This document shows, piece by piece, positions 13,224 to 14,094 of a stretch of DNA of 14,094 bases. The DNA is from a virus (taxonomy: Duplodnaviria > Heunggongvirae > Uroviricota > Caudoviricetes): positions 1 to 14,094 of the IMG/VR virus record IMGVR_UViG_2565956714_000002; one strand, written 5' to 3'. Numbering within the stretch: position 1 is the first letter of the stretch; each line of letters opens with the position of its first letter. Made by a program: the position numbers and the translations under genes. Below the pieces are notes generated by a model, which saw only the letters and a program-made list of their open reading frames with translations, was not told the origin of the DNA and did not search any database.

Positions 13224-13341
13224 GATGCGTGATATTCAGATGGTTCTTGAGCGTTGGGGAGCGTGGGCGGCTAATAATCATGAAGATGTGACCTGGTCGT
13301 CCATTGCCGCCGGTTTTAAGGGATTAATTACTTCAAAAGTA
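13224..13341 (+). pseudogene. Late-gene antiterminator Q, N-terminal 39 codons only, truncated by IS1
   Basis: ATG 13224 with GGAG 6 nt upstream encodes [39 protein letters not shown], which I recognise as the N-terminus of E. coli lambdoid Q-family antiterminators. The frame runs straight into the IS1 left end at 13342 and terminates within it. Confidence 0.7.
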
Positions 13342-13396
13342 GGTGATGCTGCCAACTTACTGATTTAGTGTATGATGGTGTTTTTGAGGTGCTCCA

Positions 13397-13672
13397 GTGG
13401 CTTCTGTTTCTATCAGCTGTCCCTCCTGTTCAGCTACTGACGGGGTGGTGCGTAACGGCAAAAGCACTGCCGGACATCAGCGCTATCTCTGCTCTCACTG
13501 CCGTAAAACATGGCAACTGCAGTTCACTTACACCGCTTCTCAACCCGGTACGCACCAGAAAATCATTGATATGGCCATGAATGGCGTTGGATGCCGGGCA
13601 ACTGCACGCATTATGGGCGTTGGCCTCAACACGATTTTACGTCACTTAAAAAACTCAGGCCGCAGTCGGTAA
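13397..13672 (+). CDS. insA: IS1 InsA, 91 aa
   Basis: The translation [43 protein letters not shown]... is the canonical IS1 InsA zinc-finger/HTH protein. Confidence 0.95.
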
Positions 13673-14094
13673 CCTCGCGCATACAGCCGGGCAGTGACGT
13701 CATCGTCTGCGCGGAAATGGACGAACAGTGGGGCTATGTCGGGGCTAAATCGCGCCAGCGCTGGCTGTTTTACGCGTATGACAGTCTCCGGAAGACGGTT
13801 GTTGCGCACGTATTCGGTGAACGCACGATAGCGACGCTGGGGCGTCTTATGAGCCTGCTGTCACCCTTTGACGTGGTGATATGGATGACGGATGGCTGGC
13901 CGCTGTATGAATCCCGCCTGAAGGGAAAGCTGCACGTAATCAGCAAGCGATATACGCAGCGAATTGAGCGGCATAACCTGAATCTGAGGCAGCACCTGGC
14001 ACGGCTGGGACGGAAGTCGCTGTCGTTCTCAAAATCGGTGGAGCTGCATGACAAAGTCATCGGGCATTATCTGAACATAAAACACTATCAATAA
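13591..14094 (+). CDS. insB: IS1 InsB reading frame, 167 aa (expressed mainly as the InsAB' transposase by -1 frameshift)
   Basis: The translation [25 protein letters not shown] ... HYLNIKHYQ matches IS1 InsB, with the stop at 14092-14094. Confidence 0.93.
13648..13654 (+). other. IS1 programmed -1 ribosomal frameshift heptamer A AAA AAC
   Basis: AAAAAAC lies in the insA/insB overlap (TTAAAAAACTC), the known IS1 frameshift motif. Confidence 0.85.

Follow-up and report, generated by a model that had tools for sequence, protein, structure and literature searches.

Introduction

Deletions mediated by IS1 that leave one copy of the element in place have been documented in E. coli, among the rearrangements of the long-term evolution experiment (PMC4173774) and in HB101/RR1 (PMC5379014). 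In known IS1 deletions of this species, a single IS1 without target duplication marks the junction of two normally distant sequences, which are collinear, and the DNA between these has been lost. Reif and Saedler reportedly described IS1 deletions in the gal region of E. coli in 1975, and work by Turlan and Chandler from 1995 is said to belong to the adjacent-deletion literature on this element. Late functions have also been lost from the IS-decayed cryptic lambdoid prophages DLP12, Qin and Rac of K-12, which keep their early/nin region; in DLP12 the homologous quuD gene is intact.

Here we analysed a window of 14,094 nucleotides, that is the whole stretch of DNA under study, which ends within an IS1 that truncates the Q gene of a lambdoid prophage, together with the contig from which it derives. 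Judged from the assembled sequence, the junction between the truncated gene (Q') and IS1 is likely to mark the left end of a deletion associated with IS1, and not a simple insertion. This kind of event is already well known, as both IS-driven prophage decay and IS1 deletions are, and the two components are textbook elements. As in the known IS1 deletions, one IS1 stands at a junction with collinear flanks and no target duplication; as in DLP12, Qin and Rac, the early/nin region is kept and late functions are missing. In contrast to the former, the endpoint here is in a prophage Q gene, so that an inducible-type prophage would have become a stump, and the event is reconstructed from one draft genome rather than observed experimentally. 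In contrast to the latter, the deletion would exit the prophage via attR and run far into the chromosome.

The early half of a prophage is retained at thrW

The window opens with proA (1-1254), which adjoins a tRNA-Thr (CGU) gene of the thrW type on the + strand (1369..1444, found by ARAGORN and Rfam tRNA). A 56-bp attL core at about 1399-1454, corresponding to the thrW 3' part, recurs as attR in an intact relative of the prophage (5914-5969 of L005, the locus of that relative) and is present once only in the window plus the locus taken from the source contig (L003). An attL standing alone, with no attR partner to bound the genes from int to the late region, makes this a prophage remnant rather than a complete prophage. 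Between 1459 and 13207, ORFs on both strands and their Pfam/PHROG matches delineate the retained early half of a lambdoid prophage, including an integrase (1459-2622, - strand), a cI-like S24 repressor of 224 aa (6092-6766, - strand), a cro-like gene and replication and nin-type genes (PerC, Dam, a LexA-DBD protein, RusA, KilA-N and DUF968).

The intact relative is the prophage at proA-thrW of Br_190_kylling, which is complete, occupies the same att site and is 98.4% identical to window 1300-13341 at 99% coverage. Its early genes come in the order int, cI-like repressor (ymfK), cro-like, ymfL, ash, PerC, Dam, LexA-like, RusA, KilA-N and DUF968, and are followed by Q (121 aa), a DNA methyltransferase gene, essD, rrrD, Rz1, terminase, portal, capsid and tail genes, tail fibres and attR. 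By this comparison, the prophage would once have measured ~42 kb, and the part between attL and Q codon 39, about 12 kb, appears to be what the source strain keeps. In length, the repressor, the integrase and most early genes do not differ from their counterparts in the intact relative, and therefore immunity may persist.

An earlier interpretation made from the window alone, hereafter the sequence-only reading, took the early, immunity and nin genes to be intact. This holds for most of them, but not for all nin-region genes, because the DUF968 (ydfU-like) gene that immediately precedes Q lacks one base near 12895. The gene (12213..13207, + strand) is split into ORFs of 270 and 96 aa with the Pfam DUF968 match spread over both, and the alignment reads AGTGGATCCGG in two intact 990-nt homologues where the window has AGTGG-TCCGG. 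The split gene is either a frameshifted pseudogene, which would be the second one in the stump, or the product of a sequencing error.

IS1 truncates a Q21-type antiterminator gene

Q' (13225..13341, + strand) consists of codons 1-39 of a late antiterminator gene of the Q21 family, identified from Pfam, PHROG and the intact relative. First, its start codon is the ATG at 13225-13227, which corrects by one base the start at 13224 given before, and a Shine-Dalgarno-like GGAG (13213-13216) lies 8 nt 5' of it; the last codon ends at 13341. Second, the 39 residues match the Pfam profile PF06530 (Phage_antitermQ) with E=3.4e-17 and a score of 62.9 bits (cutoff 26) over profile positions 1-38 of 118, as well as PHROG 79 (anti-termination protein Q-like; E=2.3e-14); no model matching this family was found in NCBIfam. 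Third, 37 of the 39 residues are identical to the N-terminus of the annotated, intact 121-aa Q in the 98%-identical prophage of Br_190_kylling. A chance ORF is ruled out, and by its sequence the fragment is of the Q family. Since the full-length relative matches the phage 21 Q structures 6P18 and 6JNX (E=7.5e-9, residues 8-89), the gene is of the Q21 type and not of the lambda Q type.

With the Q21-family antiterminators (phage 21 Q; 6P18, 6P19, 6JNX; PF06530), Q' thus shares the family profile over its N-terminal 39 residues, but it encodes only about one third of the protein. The full-length Q21-type domain (~120-160 aa) is not encoded, as only positions 1-38 of the 118 in the profile are covered, and Q' is a pseudogene fragment rather than a functional member of the family. 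Its frame enters IS1 and meets a stop at 13366-13368, which gives a product of 47 aa with the IS1-encoded tail GDAANLLI. IS1 prefers AT-rich DNA, and a G+C content of 27% in the 30 bp before its insertion point in Q' fits this preference.

The window holds bases 1-753 of the 768 bp of IS1 (13342..14094, + strand) and the last 15 bp lie past its edge; the complete element is found at 10118-10885 of L003. The left inverted repeat is GGTGATGCTGCCAACTTACTGAT (13342-13364, + strand). Terminal inverted repeats of the IS1 family are imperfect and of about 23 bp (GGTGATGCTGCCAACTTACTGAT and GGTAATGACTCCAACTTATTGAT), and those of the present element were measured as 24 nt with 79% complementarity. The insA gene (13397-13672, + strand) encodes 91 aa with the Pfam domains Zn_ribbon_InsA and HTH_Tnp_IS1, an A6C frameshift motif lies at 13648-13654 (+ strand), and the insB frame (+ strand) runs to the TAA at 14092-14094 and covers 131/131 positions of the DDE_Tnp_IS1 profile (E=2.8e-77). 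When a -1 shift was modelled at A6C, an open 232-aa InsAB' was obtained. The NCBIfam model transpos_IS1 also matches the transposase, and annotated IS1A copies share 99.3% identity with the element. Length, inverted repeats and the insA/insB' frameshift are all those of the IS1 family, and by sequence this IS1 looks intact and potentially active. Together these data bear out several points of the sequence-only reading: a Q-family ORF with a ribosome-binding site is cut after 39 codons, at 13342, by the left inverted repeat of an IS1 that shares the + strand with the early rightward genes, is complete to its insB stop at the window edge and has its right end, as had been estimated, 15 bp further.

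IS1 joins Q' to a chromosomal acetyltransferase gene

Everything past base 14094 comes from one scaffold of a draft short-read assembly (GCA_000457305.1, KE705258.1; 1.59 Mb), from which L003 was taken. Without a single difference, L003 matches window 3225-14094 (10,870 bases); it has no N and is continuous through IS1 and 9 kb further. In L003, the right end of IS1 (...GTTGGAGTCATTACC) is directly joined to TGCGCCCAAATATGCCTGG..., and the sequence at this end (TGCGCCCAAATATG...) lies inside a chromosomal acetyltransferase gene (yaiX-like), near yaiP.

The sequence-only reading treated the locus as a simple IS1 insertion in Q, and predicted that IS1 would be followed by an 8-9 bp target-site duplication and by the remaining Q codons. 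Neither was found in L003. The flanks of IS1 (...CTTCAAAAGTA and TGCGCCCAAATA...) are not repeated, the longest word common to the two 15-bp flanks is 4 bp, and a direct-repeat search finds none flanking the element. The acetyltransferase gene occupies the place of the Q remainder, and tblastn with full-length Q hits only the N-terminal fragment in L003 and nothing in the 9.2 kb downstream of IS1. No Q-family reading frame is thus resumed past IS1, which the sequence-only reading had itself named as grounds for rejecting a simple insertion. Nor did blastn find a second att core downstream of IS1 in L003. Thus, the truncation of Q by an intact IS1 stands, whereas a simple insertion with a recoverable Q remainder does not agree with the assembled sequence. 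The transposase-driven rearrangement that had been flagged as possible fits better, as IS1 joins Q' to a distant chromosomal gene.

With strain PCN061 as reference, the breakpoint falls inside a 582-nt gene, the yaiX equivalent, of which the first 109 codons are retained and the remainder is lost; the retained codons match left-handed beta-helix acetyltransferase models. In PCN061, this gene is flanked by yaiO and, in the other direction, by yaiP, PIG-L, tauABCD and hemB. The genes that follow the breakpoint in L003 keep this reference order, with a family-2 glycosyltransferase gene yaiP (-), a PIG-L deacetylase gene (-), tauABCD (ABC/TauD, +) and the ALAD gene hemB (-), and many complete E. 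coli genomes match L003 10886-12400 with 100% identity in their acetyltransferase-yaiP region. Past hemB (L003 18703-20144), we noticed a 296-aa ORF without Pfam match and then an IS3-family (rve) transposase gene running off the locus.

Since this part of the sequence comes from a draft scaffold, we considered whether a simple IS1 insertion in Q could have been mis-joined in the assembly. The strain would then still have the remainder of Q, the late genes and the chromosome as far as yaiX, where a second IS1 would lie, and the scaffold would have passed directly from one copy to the other. E. coli genomes indeed carry multiple copies of IS1 (median, 11 matching places), and a collapsed multicopy IS1 could join Q-IS1 to IS1-yaiX while the interval ends up on a separate scaffold; if two copies did collapse in this way, a simple insertion would after all hold on the side of Q. 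There are also precedents for both parts, as strain 600029 carries a simple IS1 insertion in a homologous Q of the same family, in the same orientation and 21 bp upstream of the present site, with the target duplication CGGTTTTA, and as IS1 is found in or near yaiX in other strains. However, the assembled sequence crosses IS1 and its right flank without any N, the DNA to which Q' is joined is collinear and lies on the expected side of proA, and this explanation needs two extra IS1 insertions in addition to an assembly error. Moreover, mate-pair scaffolding, as we suppose was used in this assembly, would normally be at odds with a skip of ~110 kb. We therefore hold a mis-joined simple insertion to be unlikely.

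The probable deletion spans the late prophage half and part of the chromosome

Strain E41 carries the matches to window 1-1500 (proA-thrW) and to the right flank on one and the same strand, with 116 kb between them. This collinear arrangement argues for a deletion and not an inversion, and an inversion between the two junction points was rejected on this orientation. Besides deletions, intramolecular transposition of IS1 can also produce inversions, and one could imagine that an IS1-mediated inversion or translocation moved the late prophage half and the lac region next to another IS1, without any loss. We find this extremely improbable, since the right flank keeps its reference orientation to proA, where a single inversion would have reversed it, and since a translocation needs additional events.

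Returning to the deletion, the intact relative has ~30.5 kb from Q codon 40 to attR, and the phage DNA missing from the source strain would comprise Q codons 40-121, the lysis, terminase, head and tail genes and attR, or ~30 kb. On the chromosomal side, the 50 kb before the breakpoint in PCN061 hold betABIT, pdeL, yah genes, prpRBCDE, codBA, cynRTSX, lacAYZI, mhp, frmRAB and yaiO. As read from the sequences of the reference strains, about 85-100 kb of chromosome would be missing together with the late prophage half, including bet, prp, codBA, cyn, lacIZYA, mhp, frm and yaiO, a size that is taken from E41, Br_190_kylling and PCN061 and not from an ancestor of the source strain.

Possible routes to the junction

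We propose an IS1-associated deletion because one IS1 joins distant collinear sequences, each end of IS1 cuts off a gene and no target duplication flanks the element. The starting state would be a ~42-kb lambdoid prophage at thrW beside proA. IS1 would have ended up with Q codon 39 on one side and the interior of the yaiX-like acetyltransferase gene on the other, and the intervening DNA would have been lost, that is Q codons 40 to ~121, the Q-dependent late promoter region, the lysis, terminase, head and tail genes, attR and the adjoining chromosome. Our favoured route is a single intramolecular replicative transposition (adjacent deletion) that would have started from an IS1 resident at one of the junctions. 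It is favoured over recombination between two copies on parsimony only, because it takes fewer events.

In that second route, independent insertions would first have placed IS1 copies in the same orientation in Q and in yaiX, and RecA-dependent recombination between them would have removed the interval in a second stage. It is a variant of the deletion proposed above, with which it shares its probability, and we regard it as possible, with limited confidence. Its product, one IS1 without target duplication, would be identical to what is observed, and deletions by IS recombination that leave one copy have been described (PMC4173774). In addition, both loci are targets of IS1 elsewhere, Q in three loci that we examined (L001, L002 and L010) and yaiO-yaiX-yaiP in two others (two copies in L006, one in L009). 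Against it, three events are needed instead of two, neither of the presumed intermediate junctions was found in the genome collections, and no obvious chimeric pattern has been established in the retained IS1, whose comparison with six other copies (94.3-99.3% identity) gave no informative pattern.

The exact 47-aa Q'-IS1 fusion product, by which the source contig was identified, occurs on that one contig only, and the 42-bp Q/IS1 junction has no exact match in the species-representative genome collection, to which the source genome does not belong. Likewise, no Q'-IS1 or IS1-yaiX' junction is found in one piece among complete E. coli genomes, so that there is no sister strain by which to order the events.

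IS1 in Q genes and near yaiX of other strains

Besides 600029, several strains carry IS1 in a Q gene. In MSI001, IS1 lies after nucleotide 225 of Q with terminase directly next to it, strain 6409 has an IS1-truncated Q with adjacent DNA loss, and a Qin-like Q truncated by IS1 with adjacent loss is present in at least 11 complete genomes. Of the IS1-truncated Q-type genes of unrelated E. coli prophages at L001 3326-4479, L002 3326-4304 and L010 2822-4162, one was hit 21 bp upstream of the present site, in the same orientation, by a clean insertion that has its target duplication, and the other two show adjacent DNA loss, one of them in at least 11 complete genomes. In the yaiO-acetyltransferase-yaiP region, USMARC-51688 has two IS1 copies (L006 1738-2505 and 3587-4354) and SCEC020023 has one (L009 3348-4045), all within a few hundred bp of the deletion endpoint. 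The recurrence of IS1 in Q genes and in yaiO-yaiX-yaiP across E. coli is a minor point that bears on the AT-rich target preference of the element.

An IS1-like end also seemed to lie near the acetyltransferase gene in Stbl4 and XL1-Blue. The locus is a different, complex K-12 laboratory rearrangement, and we set it aside as uninformative for the present junction. In Stbl4 (L008) and XL1-Blue, the acetyltransferase gene is joined to a truncated ABC-transporter permease/fbpC-mmuPM segment, and chaA lies upstream of frm; this rearrangement is probably related to the lac-pro deletions of these strains.

Predicted consequences for the prophage and its host

The Q-downstream region of the intact relative (L005), where a late promoter with its Q-binding/pause site and the late genes that it controls would be expected, is absent from the window and L003. 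The 39 of 121 residues left in Q' are presumably too few for the Q21-type fold (6P18), and antitermination would be lost. With the lysis and morphogenesis genes and the late promoter region absent, the stump should neither lyse its host nor form particles, and its excision by Int/Xis is expected to be impossible because attR is gone. It would retain integrase, repressor/immunity and most early genes. The sequence-only reading had also proposed that loss of Q locks the prophage in as a cryptic element. That the prophage is defective is in line with our data, but the late genes are not merely silenced, since on the assembled sequence they are gone together with the Q target region and attR.

Several predictions follow for the isolate: no phage should be released from this locus after mitomycin C, no excision should occur and the strain should be Lac-negative, unless lac is present elsewhere in the genome. 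For annotation, the Q fragment is better labelled as a pseudogene at a deletion junction than as an interrupted gene whose other half lies past the IS. The locus would be a clean example of how IS1 can turn an inducible-type prophage into a harmless stump, perhaps still immune, while removing a large chromosome block; its significance outside the source strain is small.

One could go further and suppose that the deletion is real and was selected, a clinical E. coli having lost the lethal late half of its prophage and kept immunity, antisense-RNA and early genes through one IS1 event that also removed ~85 kb of chromosome. We think this quite unlikely. If true, it would represent a Shigella-like reductive step leading to a Lac-negative lineage, with lacIZYA, prp, cyn, bet and mhp lost. 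More speculatively still, the 47-aa Q'-IS1 fusion peptide might be expressed from the early operon and interfere with the Q21-type antitermination of superinfecting phages.

Other features of the early region

Within the 278-aa Phage_ASH ORF (7649-8485), we found two RNA matches at the Rfam gathering level, isrK Hfq-binding RNA (8009-8085, + strand; 63 bits) and C4 antisense RNA (8110-8197, + strand; 82 bits). They suggest that the early region holds an antisense-RNA module of the P1/P7 c4 type or of the Gifsy-1 IsrK type, and part of the long Phage_ASH ORF may be spurious. No gene is called in the ~670 bp (5424-6091) that separate the yfdP-like gene from the cI-like repressor, and six-frame translation gives only unconvincing ORFs there. 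Finally, a 108-aa protein encoded between Dam and RusA (10670-10996, + strand) consists of a LexA DNA-binding domain alone, without the S24 peptidase domain; it is also conserved in prophages related to this one, with the annotation LexA family regulator.
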